IMG/VR virus record: IMGVR_UViG_2627853983_000001
Source of the DNA: a virus
Taxonomy: Duplodnaviria > Heunggongvirae > Uroviricota > Caudoviricetes
DNA length: 30,082 nucleotides
Strand: one strand, 5' to 3'
Both the position numbers and the translations under genes were made by a program. Positions 1-30,082 of this stretch are shown piece after piece. The notes under the pieces were generated by a model that was not told the DNA's origin, did no database searches, and worked only from the letters and a program-made list of their open reading frames with translations. Each line of letters opens with the position of its first letter. Position 1 is the stretch's first letter.

Positions 1-202
1 AATCCCTCTAGAATCATCCAGCCACGAATAAACTCACCACGTAAATCAGGCAATTTATTTGTCGGGTAAGCCTTTGCCAGTTCCGGGTATTCTTCAGCAG
101 AAAAAGCTGCTCCGTTGCATTTCAGCCAGCCTGTTGGAGGTGTCTCTGAAGGCCACGGAACAGGTGCACCAACAGGTAATGCTGAACCTTCTCCCAAACC
201 AA
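1..202 (-). repeat. Left inverted-repeat copy: reverse complement of 29880..30082 (single 1-bp indel); 5' end of a silent tail-fibre variable cassette reading out of the window
   Basis: Direct comparison: reverse complement of 1..202 equals the last ~203 nt of the window except one extra G in the right copy. On the minus strand it encodes the same peptide as the end of H (...PSETPPTGWLKCNGAAFSAEEYPELAKAYPTNKLPDLRGEFIRGW...). Confidence 0.85.
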
Positions 203-214
203 CGTTTATGAAAA
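189..214. other. Serine-invertase crossover site (hix/gix/cix-like), left: TTCTCCCAAACC-AA-CGTTTATGAAAA
   Basis: 26-bp imperfect palindrome (12-2-12) resembling recalled Hin-family half-site TTATCAAAAACC. The inverted-repeat homology with the other window end stops exactly at the central dinucleotide 201..202. Lies about 50 bp upstream of the invertase gene. Confidence 0.7.
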
Positions 215-263
215 TGCAGAGATAACGGGCAACTGGCATCATCTCCGGTTTTTATTCAGGGGG

Positions 264-863
264 ATGCTCATGCTTATTGGCTATGTACGCGTGTCAACAA
301 ATGACCAGAACACGGAATTGCAGCGTAACGCGCTGGAGTGTGCAGGATGTGAGCTTATTTTTGAGGATAAAATCAGCGGCACGAAGTCCGACCGACCGGG
401 ACTGAAAAAACTGCTCAGGACATTATCGGAGGGGGATACACTGGTGGTCTGGAAGCTGGACCGGCTGGGGCGTAGTATGCGGCATCTGGTCATTCTGGTT
501 GAGGAACTGCGCGAACGCGGTGTTAATTTTCGCAGTCTGACGGATGCTATTGATACCAGCACGCCGATGGGGCGTTTTTTCTTTCATGTGATGGGTGCCC
601 TGGCTGAAATGGAGCGAGAACTCATTGTCGAGCGGACACGCGCCGGACTGGAAGCGGCCAGAGCCAAAGGTCGTATTGGTGGCAGACGTCCGAAACTCAC
701 CGCGAGTGAGTGGGAGCAGGTCGGACGGTTGCTGGCTGCGGGGGAATCTCGTCAACGTGTGGCGCTGATTTTTGATATTGGCCTGTCCACGCTCTATAAA
801 AAATTTCCCTCATCAGCGACAAAGAATAAATTGTGTCATCCCTTAGCCAACCGGGACAAATAG
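264..863 (+). CDS. Site-specific DNA invertase, Hin/Gin/Cin/Pin family serine recombinase (likely true start at ATG 270)
   Basis: ORF translation MLIGYVRVSTNDQNTELQRNALECAGCELIFEDKISG...GRIGGRRPKL...LSTLYKK is collinear with recalled Gin/Hin sequences (catalytic Ser in YVRVST, C-terminal HTH). GGGGG Shine-Dalgarno about 8 nt before ATG 270. Confidence 0.93.
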   Translation: MLMLIGYVRVSTNDQNTELQRNALECAGCELIFEDKISGTKSDRPGLKKLLRTLSEGDTLVVWKLDRLGRSMRHLVILVEELRERGVNFRSLTDAIDTSTPMGRFFFHVMGALAEMERELIVERTRAGLEAARAKGRIGGRRPKLTASEWEQVGRLLAAGESRQRVALIFDIGLSTLYKKFPSSATKNKLCHPLANRDK

Positions 864-922
864 CCTGACATCTCCGGCACAACTGAAAATACCACTCACC
901 CATTAACCACGGAGTTAAACGG

Positions 923-2113
923 ATGAGTGACTATCATCACGGCGTGCAGGTGCTGGAGATTAACGACGGCACCCGCGTCATTTCCACCGTATCCACTGCC
1001 ATTGTCGGCATGGTCTGCACGGCCAGCGATGCGGATGCGGAAACCTTCCCCCTCAATAAACCTGTGCTGATTACCAATGTGCAGAGCGCAATTGCAAAGG
1101 CCGGTAAAAAAGGCACGCTGGCGGCATCGTTGCAGGCCATCGCTGACCAGTCAAAACCGGTCACCGTTGTCGTGCGCGTGGAAGACGGCACCGGTGATGA
1201 CGAGGAAACGAAACTCGCGCAGACCGTTTCCAATATCATCGGCACCACCGACGAAAACGGTCAGTATACCGGACTAAAAGCCCTGCTGGCGGCGGAGTCG
1301 GTAACCGGTGTTAAACCGCGTATTCTCGGTGTGCCGGGGCTGGATACCAAAGAGGTGGCTGTTGCACTGGCATCCGTCTGTCAGAAGCTGCGCGCTTTCG
1401 GATATATCAGCGCATGGGGCTGTAAGACCATTTCCGAGGTGAAAGCCTACCGCCAGAATTTCAGCCAGCGTGAGCTGATGGTCATCTGGCCGGATTTCCT
1501 CGCATGGGATACGGTCACCAGTACCACCGCCACCGCGTATGCCACCGCCCGTGCGCTGGGGCTGCGTGCCAAAATCGACCAGGAGCAGGGCTGGCATAAA
1601 ACGCTGTCCAACGTCGGGGTGAACGGTGTTACCGGCATCAGCGCATCTGTATTCTGGGATTTGCAGGAGTCCGGCACCGATGCTGACCTGCTTAATGAGT
1701 CAGGCGTCACAACGCTGATTCGCCGCGACGGTTTCCGATTCTGGGGTAACCGTACCTGCTCTGATGACCCGCTGTTCCTCTTTGAAAACTACACCCGCAC
1801 CGCACAGGTGCTGGCCGACACGATGGCTGAGGCGCACATGTGGGCGGTGGACAAGCCCATCACCGCAACGCTGATTCGCGACATCGTTGACGGCATCAAT
1901 GCCAAATTCCGTGAGCTGAAAACAAACGGCTATATCGTGGATGCGACCTGCTGGTTCAGCGAAGAATCCAACGATGCGGAAACCCTCAAGGCCGGAAAAC
2001 TGTATATCGACTACGACTATACCCCGGTGCCTCCTCTTGAAAACCTGACCCTGCGCCAGCGTATTACCGATAAATACCTGGCAAATCTGGTCACCTCGGT
2101 TAACAGCAATTAA
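923..2113 (+). CDS. FI: Contractile tail sheath protein
   Basis: 396-aa ORF, same length and near-identical sequence to recalled P2 FI; GGAG Shine-Dalgarno 8 nt upstream. Confidence 0.93.
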   Translation: MSDYHHGVQVLEINDGTRVISTVSTAIVGMVCTASDADAETFPLNKPVLITNVQSAIAKAGKKGTLAASLQAIADQSKPVTVVVRVEDGTGDDEETKLAQTVSNIIGTTDENGQYTGLKALLAAESVTGVKPRILGVPGLDTKEVAVALASVCQKLRAFGYISAWGCKTISEVKAYRQNFSQRELMVIWPDFLAWDTVTSTTATAYATARALGLRAKIDQEQGWHKTLSNVGVNGVTGISASVFWDLQESGTDADLLNESGVTTLIRRDGFRFWGNRTCSDDPLFLFENYTRTAQVLADTMAEAHMWAVDKPITATLIRDIVDGINAKFRELKTNGYIVDATCWFSEESNDAETLKAGKLYIDYDYTPVPPLENLTLRQRITDKYLANLVTSVNSN

Positions 2114-3128: not shown

Positions 3129-5568
3129 CAATGTAAAATTACAGGTATTGCTCAGGGCTGTTGACCAGGCATCCCGCCCGTTTAAATCCATCCGCACAGC
3201 GAGTAAGTCGCTGTCGGGGGATATCCGGGAAACACAAAAATCACTGCGCGAACTGAACGGTCAGGCATCCCGTATTGAGGGATTCCGCAAGACCAGCGCA
3301 CAGCTCGCCGTGACTGGTCATGCACTTGAAAAGGCACGGCAGGAGGCCGAAGCCCTTGCCACACAGTTTAAAAACACCGAACGTCCGACTCGTGCTCAGG
3401 CGAAAGTGCTGGAATCCGCAAAGCGTGCGGCGGAGGACTTACAGGCGAAATATAACCGCCTGACGGATTCCGTTAAGCGCCAGCAGCGGGAACTGGCCGC
3501 TGTGGGAATTAATACCCGCAATCTTGCACATGATGAGCAGGGGCTGAAAAACCGTATCAGTGAAACCACCGCACAGCTTAACCGTCAGCGCGACGCACTG
3601 GCGCGTGTCAGTGCACAACAGGCAAAACTTAACGCAGTCAAACAGCGTTATCAGGCCGGCAAGGAACTGGCCGGAAATATGGCCTCAGTGGGCGCTGCCG
3701 GTGTGGGGATTGCGGCGGCGGGAACGATGGCCGGAGTTAAGCTGCTGATGCCCGGTTATGAGTTTGCGCAGAAAAACTCAGAATTACAGGCTGTGCTCGG
3801 AGTGGCAAAAGACTCCGCCGAAATGGCCGCGCTCCGCAAACAGGCGCGCCAGCTCGGCGACAACACCGCCGCCTCGGCGGATGATGCGGCCGGTGCACAG
3901 ATAATCATCGCGAAAGCGGGTGGGGATGTTGATGCCATTCAGGCGGCAACGCCGGTCACGCTGAATATGGCGCTGGCGAACCGCCGCACGATGGAAGAAA
4001 ACGCCGCCCTGCTGATGGGGATGAAATCCGCCTTTCAGCTTTCAAACGATAAGGTCGCTCATATCGGGGATGTTCTCTCCATGACGATGAACAAAACCGC
4101 CGCCGATTTTGACGGTATGAGCGATGCGCTGACCTATGCCGCACCTGTGGCAAAAAATGCCGGTGTCAGCATTGAAGAAACCGCCGCAATGGTCGGGGCG
4201 CTGCATGATGCAAAAATCACAGGCTCAATGGCGGGGACGGGAAGCCGTGCCGTGTTAAGCCGCCTGCAGGCACCGACGGGAAAAGCATGGGATGCACTCA
4301 AAGAGCTTGGAGTGAAAACCTCAGACAGCAAGGGAAACACCCGGCCAATATTTACCATTCTGAAAGAAATGCAGGCCAGTTTTGAGAAAAACCGGCTCGG
4401 TACTGCCCAGCAGGCTGAATACATGAAAACTATTTTCGGGGAGGAGGCCAGCTCAGCCGCCGCCGTGCTGATGACTGCCGCCTCAACCGGAAAGCTGGAC
4501 AAACTGACCGCTGCGTTTAAAGCCTCAGACGGGAAGACCGCCGAGCTGGTAAATATCATGCAGGACAACCTAGGCGGTGACTTTAAAGAGTTTCAGTCCG
4601 CTTATGAGGCGGTGGGGACTGACCTGTTTGACCAGCAGGAAGGCGCACTGCGTAAGCTCACGCAGACGGCCACAAAGTATGTGTTAAAACTCGACGGCTG
4701 GATCCAGAAAAACAAATCACTGGCGTCAACCATCGGACTTATTGTCGGTGGTGCACTGGCACTGATTGGTGTCATCGGTGCCATTGGCCTCGTAGCCTGG
4801 CCGGTTATCACCGGCATCAATGCCATCATCGCGGCAGCAGGCGCAATGGGGGCAATCTTCACGACGGTTGGCAGTGCTGTTATGACCGCCATCGGAGCGA
4901 TTAGCTGGCCGGTTGTGGCCGTGGTGGCCGCCATTGTCGCCGGGGCGTTGCTTATCCGTAAATACTGGGAGCCTGTCAGCGCATTCTTTGGCGGTGTGGT
5001 GGAAGGGCTGAAAGCGGCATTTGCGCCGGTGGGGGAACTGTTCACGCCACTTAAGCCGGTGTTTGACTGGCTGGGTGAAAAGTTACAGGCCGCGTGGCAG
5101 TGGTTTAAAAACCTGATTGCCCCGGTCAAAGCCACTCAGGACACCCTGAACAGTTGCCGTGACACGGGGGTCATGTTCGGGCAGGCACTGGCTGACGCGC
5201 TGATGCTGCCGCTTAATGCGTTCAACAAACTGCGCAGCGGTATTGACTGGGTACTGGAAAAACTCGGTGTTATCAACAAAGAGTCAGACACACTTGACCA
5301 GACCGCCGCCAGAACTCAAGCCGCCACGTATGGCAGCGGTAGTTATATTCCGGCGACCAGCTCTTATGCAGGCTATCAGGCTTATCAGCCGGTCACGGCA
5401 CCGGCTGGCCGCTCTTATGTAGACCAGAGTAAAAACGAATATCACATCAGCCTGACGGGTGGTACTGCGCCGGGGACACAGCTTGACCGCCAGTTACAGG
5501 ATGCGCTCGAAAAATACGAGCGGGATAAACGTGCGCGCGCCCGTGCCAGCATGATGCATGACGGTTAA
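3121..5568 (+). CDS. T: Tail tape measure protein
   Basis: 815-aa ORF, coiled-coil N-terminus and Gly/Ala-rich hydrophobic segment; same length and position as P2 T. Confidence 0.92.
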   Translation: MSNNVKLQVLLRAVDQASRPFKSIRTASKSLSGDIRETQKSLRELNGQASRIEGFRKTSAQLAVTGHALEKARQEAEALATQFKNTERPTRAQAKVLESAKRAAEDLQAKYNRLTDSVKRQQRELAAVGINTRNLAHDEQGLKNRISETTAQLNRQRDALARVSAQQAKLNAVKQRYQAGKELAGNMASVGAAGVGIAAAGTMAGVKLLMPGYEFAQKNSELQAVLGVAKDSAEMAALRKQARQLGDNTAASADDAAGAQIIIAKAGGDVDAIQAATPVTLNMALANRRTMEENAALLMGMKSAFQLSNDKVAHIGDVLSMTMNKTAADFDGMSDALTYAAPVAKNAGVSIEETAAMVGALHDAKITGSMAGTGSRAVLSRLQAPTGKAWDALKELGVKTSDSKGNTRPIFTILKEMQASFEKNRLGTAQQAEYMKTIFGEEASSAAAVLMTAASTGKLDKLTAAFKASDGKTAELVNIMQDNLGGDFKEFQSAYEAVGTDLFDQQEGALRKLTQTATKYVLKLDGWIQKNKSLASTIGLIVGGALALIGVIGAIGLVAWPVITGINAIIAAAGAMGAIFTTVGSAVMTAIGAISWPVVAVVAAIVAGALLIRKYWEPVSAFFGGVVEGLKAAFAPVGELFTPLKPVFDWLGEKLQAAWQWFKNLIAPVKATQDTLNSCRDTGVMFGQALADALMLPLNAFNKLRSGIDWVLEKLGVINKESDTLDQTAARTQAATYGSGSYIPATSSYAGYQAYQPVTAPAGRSYVDQSKNEYHISLTGGTAPGTQLDRQLQDALEKYERDKRARARASMMHDG

Positions 5569-5582
5569 GGAGGTGACGAAAA

Positions 5583-6062
5583 ATGATGCTCGCGTTAGGT
5601 ATGTTTGTTTTTATGCGCCAGACGCTGCCACACCAGACCATGCAGCGTGAATCAGATTATCGCTGGCCGTCAAATTCCCGTATCGGTAAACGGGATGCCT
5701 TTCAGTTTCTCGGTGTTGGCGAGGAAAACATCACGCTTGCCGGTGTGCTTTATCCCGAACTGACCGGCGGCAAGCTGACGATGACCACGCTCAGACTGAT
5801 GGCAGAGGAAGGCCGGGCGTGGCCGTTGCTGGATGGCACCGGCATGATTTACGGCATGTATGTCATCAGCAGGGTGAGTGAAACAGGGAGTATTTTCTTT
5901 GCAGACGGCACACCACGGAAAATTGATTTTACGCTGTCGCTCACCCGCGTTGATGAGTCACTGGCCGCGCTTTATGGCGATATCGGTAAACAGGCAGAAT
6001 CGCTCATCGGTAAGGCTGGCAGTATGGCGACTAAATTCACGGGTATGACGGGGGCGGGATAA
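5583..6062 (+). CDS. U: Tail protein U
   Basis: 159-aa ORF, AAGGAGG Shine-Dalgarno upstream; P2 U length and position. Confidence 0.9.
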   Translation: MMLALGMFVFMRQTLPHQTMQRESDYRWPSNSRIGKRDAFQFLGVGEENITLAGVLYPELTGGKLTMTTLRLMAEEGRAWPLLDGTGMIYGMYVISRVSETGSIFFADGTPRKIDFTLSLTRVDESLAALYGDIGKQAESLIGKAGSMATKFTGMTGAG

Positions 6063-7225: not shown

Positions 7226-7306
7226 TGTGTTTTATTTATCTGTTTGTTTTATAAGGATAAATTAACTAAAATGGCACCATCAACAAAACCGGAAGAGGTG
7301 CTCGCG

Positions 7307-7525
7307 ATGTTTCATTGTCCTTTATGCCAGCATGCCGCACATGCGCGTACAAGCCGCTATATCACTGACACGACAAAAGAGCGTTATCACCAGTGTCAGA
7401 ACGTGAATTGCAGCGCCACGTTCATCACTTATGAGTCGGTACAGCGATACATCGTGAAGCCGGGAGAAGTCCACGCCGTAAGGCCGCACCCGTTGCCGTC
7501 AGGGCAGCAAATTATGTGGATGTGA
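7307..7525 (+). CDS. ogr: Late-gene transcription activator Ogr (Cys4 zinc finger)
   Basis: 72-aa product MFHCPLCQHAAHARTSRYITDTTKERYHQCQNVNCSATF... with CxxC-N22-CxxxxC. The tracked ORF from 7244 is an upstream extension; the internal ATG gives the P2 Ogr length. Confidence 0.9.
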   Translation: MFHCPLCQHAAHARTSRYITDTTKERYHQCQNVNCSATFITYESVQRYIVKPGEVHAVRPHPLPSGQQIMWM

Positions 7526-7563: not shown

Positions 7564-7799
7564 GGTCGATGTGGACGCTATGTGGACAGTGCTTGATATA
7601 AATCCATTTATATCATCAGGTTAGGTGCTTTTTTGTGACACCATCCCTGTCTTCCCCCACATGATGTGGGGGTTTTTTTTATCAATTACTTACATGCAAT
7701 CAAAAGTAAAAACAGGTACTTATCGAAAGCTGTAAGGGTTTGGAGCGGTTTCAAAATTTCTTGAGTGTGGACACTATGTGGACACTCAGAGGGGGAAAT
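7564..7799. other. attP: attP region with integrase arm-type sites
   Basis: Direct repeats TGTGGAC(G)C-TATGTGGACA at 7570..7588 and TGTGGACAC-TATGTGGACAC at 7766..7785 match the recalled P2 Int arm-site motif TGTGGACA. A terminator-like hairpin CCCCCAC-ATGAT-GTGGGGG plus T8 at 7654..7680 may be the core. Region lies between ogr and int as in P2. Confidence 0.7.
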
Positions 7800-8780
7800 T
7801 TATAACGTCACTCCGCCTTTTAGTGGATTCAGAGCGACGGCATTTTGCAGATAGTCAGGCGCAAGGTGCGCATAGGCCATCGTCTGCTGAATGCTCGCAT
7901 GTCCCAGAATCTGTTGCAGTGCGATTATATTGCCCCCATTCATCATGAAATGGCTTGCGAATGTATGCCGCAGGATGTGGGTTGCCTGATTGGGTGGTAT
8001 ATCAGGTTTCACTCTGCGTAAAATCCCGCAAAATTTCTCATAATCAACTTTGAATAATTTGGCGCTGGCCTCCTCTTTAACTTTTTTCTCCAGTTCCTCA
8101 GAAATCGGCACGGTTCGCTTTTTACCGTTTTTGGTTTTCAGGAAGGTAACCCTGCAATTTGTAATCTGTGCTGGTTTTAGCGTGGCAACTTCCGTCCATC
8201 TTCCTCCGGTGCTCAGACATAAAAGCGCGACAAGTAAGTCATCACCAGCCAAAACATTTAACAGTTTTTCGATTTCTGCTTTTTCCAGGAACGTCATTTC
8301 AGGGTTGGCCTCCGCCAGTGGCGGCAGTCCGTGAATTGGGTGTTGCCCGGAAAATTCATCCAATTGAATTAATTTTGTGAACATGCCGGATAATCGGTAC
8401 ATGTCACGGTTTATCGTTGCGGCACTGATACCATCACGTAGTCGCATGGAACGATAATCCATCAAAGCCCTTTTGCTCATCCTGCTCACTGGTATATCAC
8501 CTATGCCGCTGATGGTTTTGAGTAGATGATTAAACTCTTTTGTTCCATGCTCGTGGTTTTGCCCGTGATATTTCCACCAGATGTCCAGCAACTCACTCAA
8601 AGTCCGGCGGTCTGCTCGCTGGCCTCCCCATTCTTTCTGACTGGCATTGGCGATTGTGTATCGCTCAAATGCTAGTGCTTCAGCTTTTCTTTCGAATTTC
8701 CTGCGGATGCGTTTTCCGTCGCGACCGCGAGGTCTAATGTCCACTTCATAGCGACCATCATCGAGCTTCTTAATTGCCAT
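7800..8780 (-). CDS. int: Tyrosine integrase
   Basis: Start chosen at MAIKKLDDGRYEVDIRP... with GGAGG Shine-Dalgarno 8 nt upstream (tracked ORF begins 10 codons earlier). C-terminal HxLRHT...Y catalytic region; collinear with recalled P2 Int. Confidence 0.9.
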   Translation of the reverse strand: MAIKKLDDGRYEVDIRPRGRDGKRIRRKFERKAEALAFERYTIANASQKEWGGQRADRRTLSELLDIWWKYHGQNHEHGTKEFNHLLKTISGIGDIPVSRMSKRALMDYRSMRLRDGISAATINRDMYRLSGMFTKLIQLDEFSGQHPIHGLPPLAEANPEMTFLEKAEIEKLLNVLAGDDLLVALLCLSTGGRWTEVATLKPAQITNCRVTFLKTKNGKKRTVPISEELEKKVKEEASAKLFKVDYEKFCGILRRVKPDIPPNQATHILRHTFASHFMMNGGNIIALQQILGHASIQQTMAYAHLAPDYLQNAVALNPLKGGVTL

Positions 8781-8849
8781 AAGAAAGCCCTCCGGCGCTG
8801 TATTCACCATCTTGGTAGCAAATGGTGAAAATGTAATCTTTATATAGAG

Positions 8850-13990: not shown

Positions 13991-14646
13991 ATCGCCTCCT
14001 GTAAGCAGAGGGCAATTTCCGCCGATATATGCGCTTCTAAGGCGGAGTGACTATTGAGCGAAGTCTTGCCCTGAAATAATGCTCTGTTTAAACGCAAAGT
14101 GATCTGGCATATCACCGAACAGAGGACCTGAACAACACAACATATAGTATGTCGTTGTTTCTGGTTGCATTTTATGTTGTGTAATACTGGTTTTGCATCA
14201 AGGATGTTTGAGCTTTTTTTGATATAGCTCAAAGTAAAAAGCAGAGACTACGGATGATAAGGTCTTGAAAGCAATGTAAATTTTTTAAAGTTGTGAGTGG
14301 CTAGAAATGCACAGTTTCAATATGGCGGATTTAAACAAGTAATTAAAAATAGCGACATAAATTCCAATAAAATCATTAAGTTGCGTTTTCTGTGGAAACT
14401 TCGGTGACTCTGAAATTTTCTTTTAGTATCGCTGAGGTTTAACAACTCGCTGCGCAAGTAGTTAGTGTTTTTTTAACTCAATATTCTGATTTATAAGGTT
14501 TTTTATAAAACGTGGGCTGGTTGCGCGTATTCATCTCGTGTTATCAGCAAAGATAAGCTCTATATGCAGAACTGAATGCATATATGATGTCGAAAATGTT
14601 ATGGGAAAACGTGGATTAGTGTTATAGTAATGGCTGAAAAACAGCC

Positions 14647-14675
14647 TTGACATAAAATAACAGCTGTGATATGGC
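14647..14675 (+). promoter_or_regulatory. Sigma70-type promoter for the ImmA-like gene (TTGACA, 17-bp spacer, TGaTATGGC extended -10)
   Basis: Perfect -35 hexamer at 14647..14652, TGn plus TATGGC at 14667..14675, about 35 nt upstream of the AGGAGG Shine-Dalgarno and ATG 14712. Confidence 0.5.
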
Positions 14676-14711
14676 TGTGCATACTTAACTTTTTTAACGT
14701 AGGAGGCAACC

Positions 14712-15197
14712 ATGAGCTATGCAGCTAAAAAACTGCTTGACCGCTATTGGGATCGCCGACTACCTGTCGATCCGTTTAAGCTTGCTAAAGCGTGGGGTGC
14801 TCGTGTTGAAGCACTTGAGGAATCGGCTTATAACAACGATGGGTTAAGCGGTCTGGCTGTCATCAAAAAGGGTGTCCATAGGATTTATTTTGATTCTAGT
14901 GAACATTCTAATCGTCAACGTTTTACTGTTGCACACGAGTTAGGTCATCATGTGCTGGGGCATACCCAGGACGGAGAGTACCATCGGGATAATGTCGGGA
15001 ATTATTCAACAGGTGCTCGTGATTACCGTGAGGTTGAAGCAAACAAGTTTGCTGCTGAGTTGTTAATGCCTGAGTCTGCTATACGTCAATTGGTATCCAG
15101 AGAAGGTATTGATAGCACTTTGAGATTAGCAAGCATCTTTAATGTATCAGAAGCCGCTATGCATTGGCGCTTAAAGAGCTTAGGAATGGCTTATTAA
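14712..15197 (+). CDS. ImmA/IrrE-family zinc metallopeptidase (COG2856 / DUF955-like), HEXXH motif
   Basis: 161 aa with FTVAHELGHHVLGH (HEXXH) and downstream EANKFAAELLMPE, the pattern of ImmA/IrrE peptidases. Strong Shine-Dalgarno GTAGGAGG. No adjacent HTH partner ORF. Confidence 0.75.
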   Translation: MSYAAKKLLDRYWDRRLPVDPFKLAKAWGARVEALEESAYNNDGLSGLAVIKKGVHRIYFDSSEHSNRQRFTVAHELGHHVLGHTQDGEYHRDNVGNYSTGARDYREVEANKFAAELLMPESAIRQLVSREGIDSTLRLASIFNVSEAAMHWRLKSLGMAY

Positions 15198-15222
15198 TTA
15201 GCCTTTAACTTTTAACCTGTTT

Positions 15223-15263
15223 AAAATCACCTTTACGTTTGTACATGTAAGGGTGATTTTTTT
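15223..15263 (+). terminator. Terminator-like hairpin (AAAATCACCTTTAC / GTAAGGGTGATTTT) with T-run, overlapping the RBS of the next gene
   Basis: 13-14 bp stem with one mismatch, loop GTTTGTACAT, followed by TTTTTTT ending 1 nt before ATG 15264. Confidence 0.55.
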
Positions 15264-15863
15264 ATGGCTGATATTGATTTATCTGGACAGTCCCCAGAGC
15301 AAGGAACCACTCCTAAGGGCGATTTAGATCCTGATATCCTTATAAGGCGAGATAGACGGGATGGTATAGAGCGTAGAAGTATGCGATTAGTGCTCTCTGC
15401 CGTTGTGCTTTGTTTTGCTTGTACATTTCTATGGCAGGGGCTTAACTTTGCTTTGGCTGTTGGAAATGGCTTGCTGGAAGCGAAAAGCAGTATTGCCGCA
15501 GCGATAACACAAAAAGTAGATACACAAACTTGTGTTTCAGCAGAAAAATGTTCTGCTTTATCTTCGGATCCGAAGATGGCTGATGAGAGGATAACACCAT
15601 CTTCAGACACTAATAAAGTTAGAAAATCTATTTCTGGTTTATCCACCGATTGGTTATCGGCCAGTTCTCTAATAGCTATTGTTGCATTCATCCTTGGTGT
15701 GGGTTTAACTTTGCTTTTGACTCTTCTTAAATCAGCATTTCAACACCCGACAGATAAAGACTTTAGAACAAAGTCGACATCTAATACTATTGAGTTGGCC
15801 ACGCCAATCAGTGAATTAATAATTGGTGTTCTGAATATAATTAAAGACAAACTATCTAAGTAA
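15264..15863 (+). CDS. Predicted two-pass membrane protein of unknown function
   Basis: 199-aa ORF with two hydrophobic segments (LVLSAVVLCFACTFLWQGLNFALAV and LIAIVAFILGVGLTLLLTLL) flanking a Ser/Thr-rich loop; convergent terminator downstream. The overlapping minus-strand ORF 15233..15691 is the alternative reading. Confidence 0.55.
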   Translation: MADIDLSGQSPEQGTTPKGDLDPDILIRRDRRDGIERRSMRLVLSAVVLCFACTFLWQGLNFALAVGNGLLEAKSSIAAAITQKVDTQTCVSAEKCSALSSDPKMADERITPSSDTNKVRKSISGLSTDWLSASSLIAIVAFILGVGLTLLLTLLKSAFQHPTDKDFRTKSTSNTIELATPISELIIGVLNIIKDKLSK

Positions 15864-15904
15864 AGCATTAGTTGTGATTTTTTATTGGTTTTAGTGATAA
15901 TACA

Positions 15905-15938
15905 TCTCCAGTACTTATTGTTACTGGAGAGTATTTTT
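15905..15938. terminator. Convergent terminator between the membrane-protein gene and the 313-aa minus-strand gene
   Basis: Stem TCTCCAGTA / TACTGGAGA, loop CTTATTGT, followed by GTATTTTT; 15 nt from the minus-strand gene stop. Confidence 0.6.
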
Positions 15939-15945
15939 AGTCGTT

Positions 15946-16887
15946 TTATATTTTTAATGTTAGTGAATGATATTCACGAGAGTTCACGTTCGATGTGATG
16001 TAATCGGGGGCGTTAACACCAAGAATCGCAACGAGTAATCGGCAAATTAAAGCCTGCATTTGTTGTAATATGTCATCTCCATATTGATAATTGTTAATAG
16101 TGGTAAAGCCAAGTGGTTGACCATGAAACATAGCTTCATGAAAGTTTTCATTGCGGATGTTTGTAATGTTTTTTTTGCCTGTAACCCATGATGGTCGTGG
16201 TATTCCATAAGTTTTGCAGATCCACTTCAAGCGCCTGGAGTGATTTAGAGTCTTTTCTGTACACTTGTTCTTTTCTGCCCATGTTAAAGCAAAGCAACTA
16301 TCCAGTGCCATGTAAAGATACTGGAATTTTTCGAAGCTAAGGTATTGTGGGTTTTGGGATAAAAATAGTGCATGCACTATTGCTGCTATATTTATTGGTG
16401 CGTGTTTGGTTTTTGTCTCGCTAGACATGTATTTGAGTGCTAATTCTATAACCTCTTTTTCAGAGCACTTGACCAGAATAAAGTCAGTTAATTTGCTGGG
16501 TTTTATTGGGGTTGCGTCTAAAAAACCGGCATCAGTAGTTGTTAATCTTATCCCTTTGAAAAAAGACAGACACCACACAGCAAAATTGAGAGTTTCTAGT
16601 GAAGATGTATTTTTTAATTTTAGTGAGTGTGTTTTGGGTAAGCCAAATACTCGTTGGCTAAAAGGCATTGTGGATATGCCTCCATTGAGGTTATATACTT
16701 CTTGGTTTCCTGGGTATATCCAACCGTTAATAACATTTCTGTGATTGTTTATAAGATTTGTTTTTTCCGCCAGACCGGGTAAAGTAAGTAAAGAAAAATC
16801 ATCAGTTTCAACGTTAACTTCTACTGGATAGTATCCAAACTCAGCTTCAATATCATTGGATTGCTGTTCGTCAACTTTACCTTGCAT
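15946..16887 (-). CDS. Hypothetical 313-aa protein with HEPN-like RNxxxH motif (RNENFH, residues 245..250); candidate abortive-infection RNase
   Basis: Long ORF in the AT-rich island with GGAG Shine-Dalgarno 6 nt upstream. The RNENFH motif was verified on the DNA (minus strand of 16138..16155). The fold assignment is inferred from the motif only. Confidence 0.7.
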   Translation of the reverse strand: MQGKVDEQQSNDIEAEFGYYPVEVNVETDDFSLLTLPGLAEKTNLINNHRNVINGWIYPGNQEVYNLNGGISTMPFSQRVFGLPKTHSLKLKNTSSLETLNFAVWCLSFFKGIRLTTTDAGFLDATPIKPSKLTDFILVKCSEKEVIELALKYMSSETKTKHAPINIAAIVHALFLSQNPQYLSFEKFQYLYMALDSCFALTWAEKNKCTEKTLNHSRRLKWICKTYGIPRPSWVTGKKNITNIRNENFHEAMFHGQPLGFTTINNYQYGDDILQQMQALICRLLVAILGVNAPDYITSNVNSREYHSLTLKI

Positions 16888-16933: not shown

Positions 16934-17124
16934 CATGTTCGCAAAGTATCCATACCTGTGGATTTTGTAAATTTAAGTTGATTTGTCATTAAATAAGCCG
17001 TTGCATGCAACAAGTGAATGTTTTTGCATGCGTCGGGGATGTCCGTTCAGGCTGCGTGCGGTCAGGACTGGTGCGGATCCATAGTATCTATGCAACTGCA
17101 TTAAAACCGCCCCATGAAGCGGGC

Positions 17125-17143
17125 GGGCGAGGCGGGGAAAGCA
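17125..17143. other. cos: cos site (19-nt cohesive end sequence GGCGAGGCGGGGAAAGCAC)
   Basis: Exact match to the P2 cohesive-end sequence as I recall it, in the expected position just beyond the portal gene Q. Confidence 0.75.
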
Positions 17144-17284
17144 CTGCGCGCTGGCGGTGGTGCTGATTTTATTTTTTCAGCGTCTGAGCGCGTCGTGATG
17201 GCGTTTAGATTGTGCGCCGGGGCGTTGGTGTGTCTGCGGGCTGTTTTGTGCGGTGGTGAGTGTGTGAGGGCGTGATGACGGGCT

Positions 17285-17308
17285 GTAAAAAAGCCGCCCG
17301 CAGGCGGC
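17285..17308 (-). terminator. Rho-independent terminator downstream of Q (minus strand)
   Basis: GCCGCC-CGCA-GGCGGC stem followed on the minus strand by TTTTTT. Confidence 0.6.
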
Positions 17309-28453: not shown

Positions 28454-29057
28454 TTCGCGCCTGCTGCCGACCGGCTCATCACCGCTTGAAGTCGCCGCCG
28501 CAAAAGCCTGTGCGGAAATTGAAAAAACGCCGGTCAGTATTCGTGAGCTGTGGAACCCGGATACCTGTCCGGCAAATCTGCTGCCGTGGCTGGCGTGGTC
28601 ATTTTCGGTTGACCGCTGGGATGATAAGTGGCCGGAAGCGACAAAACGCGCTGTTATCCGCGATGCGTATTTCATTCACTGCCATAAGGGCACTATAGGC
28701 GCAATCCGGCGTGTGGTGGAGCCGCTCGGCTATCTGATTGAGGTGAGGGAGTGGTGGCAGCTCAACGAGGAGCCGGGGACGTTCCGCATCGTTGTTGGCG
28801 TGCTTGAGCAGGGTATTACCGAGGAAATGTATCAGGAGCTGGAGCGCCTCGTTGCTGATGCAAAACCGGCAAGCCGCCATCTGACGGGACTGGCTATCAG
28901 CTTAAGTACAACCGGCAACATTTTTGCCGGTGCGGGATGCTATCACGGCGACGCCCTGACGGTTTATCCCTACACCCCGGAGGCCATTATTGTCGGAGGG
29001 GATTATTTCCCGGCCTCGGCCATTCATTTAATTGATAACCTGAGAGTAAACGCATGA
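28446..29057 (+). CDS. I: Baseplate protein I
   Basis: 203-aa ORF overlapping the J stop and the H start. Confidence 0.85.
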   Translation: MSDSRLLPTGSSPLEVAAAKACAEIEKTPVSIRELWNPDTCPANLLPWLAWSFSVDRWDDKWPEATKRAVIRDAYFIHCHKGTIGAIRRVVEPLGYLIEVREWWQLNEEPGTFRIVVGVLEQGITEEMYQELERLVADAKPASRHLTGLAISLSTTGNIFAGAGCYHGDALTVYPYTPEAIIVGGDYFPASAIHLIDNLRVNA

Positions 29058-30082
29058 CAGTGAAATACTACGCCATTCTGACTAATCAGGGCGCAGCACG
29101 GCTGGCTAACGCGACGATGCTCGGCAGTAAGCTGAATCTGACGCAAATGGCCGTTGGTGATGCGAATGGTGTCTTGCCGACACCAGACCCGGCACAGACA
29201 AAACTGATTAATCAGAAACGCATTGCACCGCTGAATCTTCTGAGTGTTGACCCGAACAACCAGAGCCAGATTATTGCGGAGCAAATCATCCCTGAGAACG
29301 AGGGCGGATTCTGGATCCGTGAGATTGGGCTTTATGATGATGAAGGCGTACTCATTGCGGTGGCGAACTGCCCGGAAACGTACAAACCGCAGTTACAGGA
29401 AGGCAGCGGTCGTACCCAGACTATCCGCATGATTCTGGTTGTCACGAATACCGAAGCTATCACGCTGAAAATCGACCCGTCGGTGGTACTGGCGACCCGT
29501 AAATACGTGGATGATGAAGTCCTGGAATTAAGGCTGTATGTGGATGACCAGATGAGAAACCACATTGCCGCACAGGACCCTCATACCCAGTATGCACAGA
29601 AACATAATCCGACATTTACCGGAGAACCAAAAGCGCCGACGCCTGCCGCAGGAAATAACACCACGCGGATTGCGACCACTGCGTTTGTACAGGCCGCTAT
29701 TACCGCTCTGATTAACGGTGCCCCTGACACGCTGGACACACTGAAAGAAATTGCCGCAGCTATCAACAATGACCCGAAATTCAGCGCCACCATTAACAAT
29801 GCGCTGTCAGGTAAGCAGCCACTGGATGAGACGCTGACTCATTTGAGTGGAAAGGATGTAGCTGGTCTTCTCGCATACCTTGGTTTGGGAGAAGGTTCAG
29901 CATTACCTGTTGGTGCACCTGTTCCGTGGCCTTCAGAGACACCTCCAACAGGCTGGCTGAAATGCAACGGAGCAGCTTTTTCTGCTGAAGAATACCCGGA
30001 ACTGGCAAAGGCTTACCCGACAAATAAATTGCCTGATTTACGTGGTGAGTTTATTCGTGGCTGGGATGATTCTAGAGGGATT
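29054..30082 (+). CDS. H: Tail fibre protein H, constant N-terminal part (partial: open at the window end, continues into the invertible segment)
   Basis: ATG at 29054 overlaps the I stop (ATGA). The frame stays open for 343 codons to the last base (MTVKYYAILTNQGAARLANATMLGSKLNLTQMAVGD...RGEFIRGWDDSRGI). Absent from the ORF track only because it has no stop in the window. Confidence 0.88.
   Translation, partial: MTVKYYAILTNQGAARLANATMLGSKLNLTQMAVGDANGVLPTPDPAQTKLINQKRIAPLNLLSVDPNNQSQIIAEQIIPENEGGFWIREIGLYDDEGVLIAVANCPETYKPQLQEGSGRTQTIRMILVVTNTEAITLKIDPSVVLATRKYVDDEVLELRLYVDDQMRNHIAAQDPHTQYAQKHNPTFTGEPKAPTPAAGNNTTRIATTAFVQAAITALINGAPDTLDTLKEIAAAINNDPKFSATINNALSGKQPLDETLTHLSGKDVAGLLAYLGLGEGSALPVGAPVPWPSETPPTGWLKCNGAAFSAEEYPELAKAYPTNKLPDLRGEFIRGWDDSRGI
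29868..29893. other. Serine-invertase crossover site, right: TTCTCGCATACC-TT-GGTTTGGGAGAA, inside H
   Basis: 26-bp imperfect palindrome. Its inner half and centre are identical (inverted) to site 189..214; the outer halves differ. The inverted-repeat homology begins exactly at the central dinucleotide 29880..29881. Confidence 0.7.
29880..30082 (+). repeat. Right inverted-repeat copy (partner of 1..202), coding the first ~67 aa of the tail-fibre variable part
   Basis: Reverse-complement identity with 1..202 apart from one extra G (CTGGG versus CTGG) about 20 nt from the window edge. Confidence 0.85.

Follow-up and report, generated by a model that had tools for sequence, protein, structure and literature searches.

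Tail-fibre switches driven by DNA invertases are known from the Mu, P1 and e14 elements and from P2-like prophages. In the G segment of Mu, the constant part of S is followed by a gix site, by the alternative arrangements Sv U and U′ Sv′, by a second gix site and by the gin gene. The segment spans about 3 kb, and the gix pair forms a 34-bp repeat in which both halves are identical and the centre is TC. The C segment of P1, inverted by Cin, is a fibre switch of the same family, with inverted repeats of about 0.6 kb lying just inside its crossover sites. A switch of this type acts as a bet-hedging device, the lysogen releasing particles with two fibre tips and thereby gaining a wider host range.

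The Hin system of Salmonella belongs to the same family. Its two crossover sites, hixL and hixR, have only one half-site and the centre in common. The sites are 26 bp long with a central AA, and the 5′ end of the hin gene contains a 65-bp Fis-dependent enhancer, about 100 bp from hixL, the nearest site. Members of the family require Fis on an enhancer of this kind, with a Fis site at either end, and in hin the AT-rich tracts ATTTA and TAATG have been placed between the two Fis sites (PMC3798978).

The cryptic prophage e14 of E. coli K-12 carries the P segment, 1797 bp in length, with the published repeat TTGGTTTGGGAGAAGG (PMC12529663). Its layout consists of the constant part of the fibre gene, a cassette with tfa opposed to tfaE with a Collar cassette, and the invertase gene, which encodes PinE. 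The e14 element is a defective lambdoid remnant in which stfE is a pseudogene. PinQ and StfE2 have recently been reported to provide a recombinase-activated block to the adsorption of other phages.

Among the P2-like elements, Fels-2 carries an inverted tail-fibre segment together with the fin invertase (PMC7953296). In P2-like prophages of EPEC, both orientations were detected within one culture by read mapping and PCR, and one of these prophages has three repeats and three alternative C-termini (PMC4272514).

The locus described here lies at the two ends of a stretch of viral DNA of 30,082 nucleotides (IMG/VR record IMGVR_UViG_2627853983_000001), the whole of which was analysed and is referred to below as the window. 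It is compared with the systems above, with finished relatives in E. coli and with a preliminary description made from the sequence alone.

Genome organization

The gene content and order of the window, assigned by Pfam, are those of P2-like phages, the Peduoviridae (ogr, int, a C-type repressor and gpA). The portal gene Q and the terminase gene P are divergent from the capsid genes, the tail genes follow the order V, W, J, I, H, and FI and FII come after the fibre gene. Reading from the left end, the invertase gene is followed by the sheath, tube and tape measure genes, ogr and the integrase gene (Table 1). The remaining genes include an HTH repressor, the replication protein gpA, a small cargo region, the portal and the large terminase, then the capsid, lysis and baseplate genes, and finally the fibre gene H from 29054. 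The window and annotated P2-like prophages are collinear, as are the window and Peduovirus pro483.

The match to the integrated prophage of E. coli 736 breaks off at position 7683 of the window, between ogr and the integrase gene, and in the 736 lysogen the chromosome (fieF) starts at the point matching this position. With the homology to the integrated form ending here, the window thus contains attP in its joined form. It follows that the genome is excised and circularly permuted, with its only discontinuity between H and the invertase gene. Very probably, the window is the complete genome, in this form, of an E. coli P2-like temperate phage, without the interior of an invertible tail-fibre segment of about 1.9 kb that is flipped by a Pin/Gin-family invertase.

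Table 1. Positions of the switch components and of the flanking phage genes in the window
Feature	Position	Strand	Sequence or basis	Remarks
Start of cassette B (Collar-domain type)	1-188	-		Adjoins invertase; cut by contig end
Crossover site, invertase-proximal, 26 bp	189-214		TTCTCCCAAACC AA CGTTTATGAAAA	Central AA 201-202
Serine DNA invertase, 197 aa, Gin/Pin/Cin/Hin family	270-863	+	Pfam, Gin structure match, PinE identity	
Candidate Fis-dependent recombinational enhancer, 64 bp	291-354		Homology	In 5′ end of invertase gene
G-N13-C 15-mer bounding candidate enhancer	291-305		GTGTCAACAAATGAC	
G-N13-C 15-mer bounding candidate enhancer	340-354		GTGCAGGATGTGAGC	
Sheath FI	923-2113			Then tube and tape measure
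ogr	7244-7525			
Tyrosine integrase	7800-8810	-		
Constant N-terminal part of P2 H-type tail-fibre gene, to crossover site	29054-29867	+	Pfam Phage_tail_fib	
Crossover site within fibre gene, 26 bp	29868-29893		TTCTCGCATACC TT GGTTTGGGAGAA	Central TT 29880-29881; encodes ...LAYLGLGE
Start of variable cassette B, in frame with H ('B-on')	29894-30082	+	Pfam Collar	Runs off contig end

Terminal inverted repeat and crossover sites

Global alignment of 260 nt from each end shows that positions 1-202 of the window are the reverse complement of 29880-30082. The sole mismatch is a 1-nt indel, at which the left arm reads CC (18-19) and the right arm CCC. The same inverted pair was returned by a repeat search, with arms at 18-214 and 29868-30064 that are 97% complementary. 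An inverted identity of 200 nt cannot arise by chance. It breaks off right after a central dinucleotide, AA on the left and TT on the right, and at each junction lies a 26-bp site. The two sites are inverted with respect to each other, and each is made up of 12-bp imperfect inverted half-sites around a common 2-bp core, as in the known members of the family. The half-sites of both fit the pattern TTcTCnnAaACC, and AA and TT on the plus strand represent one core in inverted orientation. The inner half-sites are the same in both, and the outer half-sites agree at 7 of 12 positions.

The preliminary description had recognized the window ends as inverted copies, which the alignment confirms apart from the missing C at 18-19. 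It had also placed both sites correctly and noted their common inner half and centre and their unlike outer halves. The further point that it stressed, a homology breaking exactly at the central dinucleotide, is true but not special, as the mechanism predicts such a break and the 16-bp repeat of e14 has the same sequence. The homology stops at the core because the strands are exchanged at the central 2 bp, so that the inner halves move with the segment and the outer halves need only bind the enzyme.

The left 26-mer, or a variant of it at one or two bases, is found 80-81 nt 5′ of the invertase start in about 70 relatives from IMG/VR and genomes. The partner site of these relatives has the same inner half and core and lies within the fibre gene, a further 1.5-2.5 kb upstream, its commonest form being the one at 29868-29893. 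A scan for a third site in the window, allowing up to two mismatches, returned none, as did 100 shuffles, although the scan is partly circular since its degenerate pattern was derived from the two sites themselves.

The invertase gene

The invertase gene begins with an ATG at 270, 56 bp beyond the end of the left crossover site, a distance given as about 50 bp in the preliminary description. The product is built like a small serine recombinase, its catalytic domain being N-terminal (Pfam Resolvase, 1.9e-52) and its helix-turn-helix C-terminal (HTH_7, 5.4e-13), and the catalytic Ser9 motif YVRVSTNDQ is present. Residues 1-182 align with the Mu Gin crystal-structure sequences 3UJ3 and 4M6F (E=6e-94), and the protein shares about 80% of its residues with Mu Gin and 86% with PinE of e14. 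The earlier assignment to a Gin/Cin/Pin-type system is thus borne out by the Pfam domains, by the match to Gin and by 26-bp sites that fit the family. The exact protein is RefSeq WP_000905101.1 and is found in the public assembly index in 345 blocks. The gene already appears in GenBank and RefSeq as that of a DNA invertase or recombinase. A simple scan of window positions 1-1000 for sigma-70-like promoters returned none for the gene.

Candidate Fis enhancer

The 5′ end of the invertase gene contains a segment that is probably the Fis enhancer, on the evidence of homology and of a position as in hin. It is bounded by two G-N13-C 15-mers, both of which are found at identical offsets in Mu gin, and the centre of the proximal one is about 97 bp from the crossover centre. 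The G1 and C15 of both 15-mers are retained in all 66 distinct relatives compared. The stretch between them presumably corresponds to the ATTTA...TAATG tracts of hin. Synonymous variation in invertase codons 1-35 is below that downstream by sliding synonymous entropy, a weakly informative measure that is only suggestive here. From the homology with hin and gin, the switch would be expected to depend on Fis and on the enhancer.

Other Fis-like 15-mers, at +45 and +93, were the first candidates for the enhancer and were dropped, their terminal C often being a T in relatives. The ATTTA and TAATG tracts of hin, which lie between its Fis sites, map onto the +45 region.

Fibre gene and variable cassettes

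The constant part of H matches Pfam Phage_tail_fib over residues 1-150 (9.2e-63) and is collinear with H of the prophages of E. coli 736 and Ecol_656. The crossover site is in frame inside H, and the frame remains open, without a stop, to the end of the window. A Pfam Collar domain is found at residues 287-334 of this open frame. Positions 29400-30082 are 100% identical to Ecol_656, in which H bears the same cassette, termed B.

At the opposite end, window positions 1-1300 are 99.9% identical to the 736 prophage. The start of cassette B present here (GLGEGSALPVG...GEFIRGW) ends in a frameshift caused by the 1-nt deletion at 18-19, which affects the last 6 codons. It corresponds to the invertase-proximal cassette of 736 and differs from it only by this indel.

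The composition of the segment can be read from these relatives. In the 736 prophage, H continues into a gp53-like C-terminal cassette, termed A, and is followed by a 146-aa chaperone. On the opposite strand lie a 200-aa TfaE chaperone and the Collar cassette B, which abuts the invertase gene. In Ecol_656, H is joined to cassette B and TfaE, and cassette A and its chaperone abut the invertase gene. The segments of relatives accordingly encode two pairs, a Gp53-like_C cassette with one Caudo_TAP chaperone and a Collar cassette with another Caudo_TAP chaperone, TfaE. The alternative C-termini of H, as seen in the relatives, are therefore each provided with a chaperone.

The interior of the invertible segment is absent from the window, about 1.5 kb being missing, including the receptor-binding domains. 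By comparison with the relatives, the segment of this phage would have the same cassette content. The preliminary description had predicted that the DNA between the repeats holds two fibre C-terminal cassettes and probably a chaperone, and in finished relatives there are two cassettes and two chaperones. Its view that the contig was broken at the switch also holds.

Inversion in related prophages

The prophages of E. coli 736 and Ecol_656 are 100% identical in the flanks of the segment, over 5495 and 3316 bp. The sole difference between them is an exact reverse complement between the sites, seen as an inverted alignment of 1905 bp that overlaps the flanks by 15 and 18 bp. Both states are common in finished E. 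coli genomes, where H runs directly into cassette A in 27 genomes and into cassette B in 38. Near-identical prophages are thus found in two states, and the switch operates in nature. All ten loci that encode the exact invertase pair a gp53-like cassette with a Collar cassette, either of which may come first. An IS21 insertion inside the segment is the same in two related assemblies, in which the segment has opposite orientations.

Proposed mechanism

By analogy with the systems above, dimers of the invertase would bind the two inverted 26-bp sites, one in H and the other upstream of their own gene. The host protein Fis would assist, bound to the enhancer inside the invertase gene, which is probably the segment at 291-354. 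Both sites would be cut at the central 2 bp, half of the complex would rotate by 180 degrees, and religation would follow. With each flip, the 276 constant codons of H are predicted to be joined to one or the other of two C-terminal cassettes for receptor binding, both of which are followed by a fibre-assembly chaperone of their own. A change in host range may be the effect of the switch, judging from homology.

Interpretation of the 203-nt repeat

In the window, the first 63 codons of cassette B are joined to both crossover sites, in frame with H on the right and adjoining the invertase gene on the left. At least 188 nt of cassette B lie inside both sites. The arrangement may reflect two physical copies in the phage, a mixture of orientations in the population or some other cause, and the weights given to these below come from reasoning on assembler behaviour.

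The reading that is slightly favoured is that this phage has two physical copies of the start of cassette B, in the form of a long perfect inverted repeat within one molecule as in P1, and that the assembler stopped at its inner edge. A contig that runs from repeat′ through unique sequence to repeat would be expected from path-extending assemblers at a true inverted repeat, the middle being placeable either way, and two copies would account for the common end point of the arms. One finished genome, E. coli Z0117EC0148, has a perfect inverted repeat of 282 bp for this type of cassette, and repeats of 253 bp occur in two IMG/VR prophages (94% identity, in a different module). The evidence from the nearest relatives, however, runs against two copies. 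A 4-kb query joining the two window ends was compared with finished genomes, and the best 60 relatives were taken. Of these E. coli genomes, 59 cover 95% of the query, with the start of cassette B on one side only, whereas Z0117EC0148 covers 99%. In Z0117EC0148, the cassette beside the invertase gene is annotated as a pseudogene and joins the start of B, out of frame, to the end of a gp53-like cassette. A few other relatives have repeats of 70-80 bp. The ten exact-invertase loci, with their pairs of unlike cassettes, also speak against two copies, and the sites of the nearest relatives have just 15 bp in common. In addition, a 1-nt indel between the arms would be unexpected if both ends represented one collapsed edge of the assembly graph.

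A credible alternative, although held at somewhat less than an even chance, is that the phage has one A and one B cassette with a 15-bp repeat, and that the population was of mixed orientation. The contig would then have joined cassette B to the H side from the B-on state and to the invertase side from the A-on state. The rarity of long repeats among finished genomes favours mixed orientations. The nearest finished relatives, which are 99.4% identical over the 4-kb junction query, have A and B with the 15-bp repeat, and this form accounts for the same 59 of the best 60 relatives and for all ten exact-invertase loci. B of Ecol_656 and the right arm are 100% identical, and B of 736 differs from the left arm by the 1-nt indel only. 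Both states are also known to coexist in cultures of P2-like lysogens (PMC4272514).

The behaviour of draft contigs bears on mixed orientations in both directions. Such contigs often stop at the crossover sites or at module borders in B (L005, L072, L097 and L100), as a mixture would allow. Contigs of A/B prophages typically end at the crossover site itself (L005, L030 and L072), and independent contigs ending inside B do so at the equivalent of 30070 (L097) and at B+290 (L100). Homology to the window is lost at 30069-30070 in many genomes. These contig ends and this loss of homology indicate that assembly graphs commonly branch at the far edge of the conserved B module. Against a mixture, the junction of H with B and that of A′ with the invertase gene would have one abundance, and the junctions of H with A and of B′ with the invertase gene the other. 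A coverage-led assembler should therefore not take B at both ends. The usual end of a contig would moreover be the crossover site itself, as the workings of assemblers suggest, but here both arms terminate at exactly the same base. No repeat that could account for a break at B+189 was found in the one reference segment examined.

Neither two copies nor mixed orientations account neatly for the 1-nt deletion at 18-19. The deletion falls within a run of C residues, 18 nt from the contig end, and the simplest explanation is a consensus error. The left-end variant with this deletion had no exact match in IMG/VR or in the JGI metagenomes. If the deletion were real, the invertase-side cassette would be frameshifted. 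Causes of the repeat other than two copies or mixed orientations are given only a small share of the probability.

It is very unlikely that the locus is a decayed remnant resembling e14, with a dead switch and a frameshifted pseudogene as the invertase-side cassette. The missing C at 18-19 does shift the frame in the left copy, and L084, the single finished genome found to have a long repeat, has a hybrid pseudogene, out of frame, as its cassette beside the invertase gene. The ORF of the invertase is intact, however, and encodes the same protein as in prophages seen in both orientations. Both crossover sites are likewise intact, the remaining phage genome looks complete, and the indel is in a C run near a contig end, a typical place for a consensus error, in a variant not found in IMG/VR or in the JGI metagenomes.

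That a linear phage genome ends here in genuine inverted terminal repeats, with no connection to inversion, agrees with arms that extend exactly to both contig termini but is in practice refuted. The repeat is in-frame tail-fibre coding sequence that runs off the end without a stop, and its inner ends coincide with two crossover sites typical of the family. The cos ends of P2-like phages lie near the portal gene, and within the window no break separates the cos region from that of attP. Relatives, moreover, run on past the contig ends into about 1.5 kb more genes.

Significance

Assemblies of short reads break at invertible segments, either at the crossover sites or at repeats. The perfect 'inverted terminal repeats' that result may fool completeness tools into calling a finished linear genome. 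In the present contig such repeats mark an invertible segment, and the roughly 1.5 kb that is missing there holds the receptor-binding domains.

Cross-talk with the Pin invertases of the host would be likely wherever an E. coli strain has both this element and e14, because the crossover sites match those of e14, the invertase-proximal site at all 26 positions. An extended form of this idea is that host Pin invertases flip the switch in trans, that the invertase of the phage flips e14 and that the switch, beyond its role in the host range of the phage, doubles in the lysogen through the gp53-like cassette as an adsorption block to other phages, as in the report on PinQ and StfE2; this is considered unlikely. 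A more modest alternative, to which the slight preference for two copies applies, is a perfect inverted repeat of at least 203 bp with two Collar-type cassettes, which would be a P1-like arrangement on a P2 chassis.

Comparison with known systems

On the evidence of its sequence, the system belongs to the Gin/Cin/Pin/Hin family, is of the fibre-switch type and is closest to the Pin/P-segment module of e14. The PinE-proximal site of e14 is identical to the left site of the window (26/26), and the 16-bp repeat TTGGTTTGGGAGAAGG of e14 is the one shared by the two window sites. The segments are similar in size, at about 1.8-1.9 kb, the layout is alike, and the module at the start of cassette B is 93% identical. 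Cassette A of the relatives has the same gp53-like C-terminal domain as StfE2 of e14. The outer half-site on the fibre side differs, being CTCTCGAAAACC in e14 and TTCTCGCATACC here. Whereas e14 is a defective lambdoid remnant, the module described here lies between H and the sheath gene FI in an apparently complete P2-like genome.

The G segment of Mu has the same architecture, and gix and the window sites have a half-site consensus in common. The segment is longer in Mu than the approximately 1.9 kb found in the relatives of this phage, and the halves that are identical in the gix pair contrast with the differing outer halves here, as does the central TC with TT/AA. Long repeats of the P1 Cin type match the proposal made for the 203-nt repeat in the preliminary description, but the nearest relatives are without such repeats. 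The hix sites, with one half-site and the centre in common, follow the same pattern as the window sites. Hin, however, flips a promoter and sits inside its own segment, whereas coding cassettes are swapped here and the invertase gene is outside the segment.

The nearest systems by phage type are fin of Fels-2, the P2-like prophages of EPEC E2348/69 and pro483, in which the switch is in the same place and nothing essential is different. That these segments invert is known from comparisons of genomes or from mapped reads and PCR. The system is thus one already known from e14, Fels-2 and the P2-like prophages of EPEC, and it makes no departure from the known kind.

Genome form and contig breaks

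The homology of the window to the integrated, near-identical prophage of the finished genome of E. coli 736 ends at position 7683, between ogr and the integrase gene. As the homology stops at this point, the window carries the joined attP and is an excised, circularly permuted genome. No break other than the invertible segment was found within the window, the expected cos region near 17000-17300 included.

Invertible fibre segments systematically break contigs and give rise to spurious inverted terminal repeats. Many prophage contigs from draft genomes stop exactly at a crossover site or at module borders of the Collar-type cassette (relatives L005, L030, L072, L097 and L100). The borders inside this cassette at which draft contigs stop are the equivalents of window position 30070 and of B+290, the latter counted into the Collar-type cassette B.

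The inverted arms and the invertase upstream region

The left arm contains CC at window 18-19, whereas the right arm (30063-30065) and all relatives have CCC. If the CC at 18-19 is real, the cassette on the invertase side would, as read from the sequence, be frameshifted after ...GEFIRGW. The exact left-arm variant lacking the one C had no match in IMG/VR or in the JGI metagenomes.

In the stretch that separates the crossover site from the start of the invertase gene, the plus strand has a weak terminator-like hairpin with a T run behind it (231-250). A scan of window 1-1000 gave no sigma-70-like promoter for the invertase.

The cargo region

The features between the replication gene gpA and the portal gene are listed in the table. 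The exact 313-aa product of the last ORF in the table is contained in 9378 blocks of the public index. Possibly the region as a whole is a P2 variable locus occupied by a regulated module of defence or cargo genes.

Features of the cargo region (window coordinates)
Feature	Position	Strand	Remarks
Cargo region	14531-16887		Between gpA and portal gene
Small divergent ORF	14531-14713	minus	
M78 peptidase, 161 aa	14712-15197		Match to PADLOC capP model, 1.1e-30
ORF	15264-15863		No match in Pfam or PADLOC
ORF, 313-aa product	15946-16887	minus	No match in Pfam or PADLOC

Long repeats and variant switches in relatives

A perfect 282-bp inverted repeat lies between the two crossover sites, on their inner side, at one locus (L084, 2295-4236) in the finished genome of E. 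coli Z0117EC0148 (NZ_CP098178.1), the sole case with such a repeat among the 60 best relatives. Its invertase-side cassette consists of a Collar-type start, to which the final ~40 codons of a gp53-like cassette are joined out of frame. Two further P2-like prophages (L018 and L021) have the same invertase at 98% identity and a 2.5-kb segment that contains 253-bp inverted repeats of 94% identity at 3426-3678 and 5684-5936, in a different cassette module. These 253-bp repeats show that long repeats do occur in P2-like prophages with an invertase like that of the window.

Within the invertible segment, two related assemblies (L089 and L094) carry an IS21 insertion (istA/istB) between the Collar-type cassette and tfaE, and the fact that their enlarged segments are found in opposite orientations indicates that the enlarged segment still inverts. 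A contig of 6037 nt in all (IMGVR_UViG_2693429728_000004; L077, identical to L099) encodes two invertase-like genes. It also has a perfect 782-bp inverted repeat, one arm of which reaches the end of the contig, and represents either an assembly fold-back or a switch of tandem or complex type. In the relative L074, the invertase-proximal site has the outer half of the fibre-side site, resulting in a perfect 27-bp inverted repeat. In several others (L014, L028, L045, L050 and L060) it is an upstream partner site that has the invertase-side outer half instead. Such cases may reflect fold-back assemblies, or extra sites in a shufflon-like arrangement.
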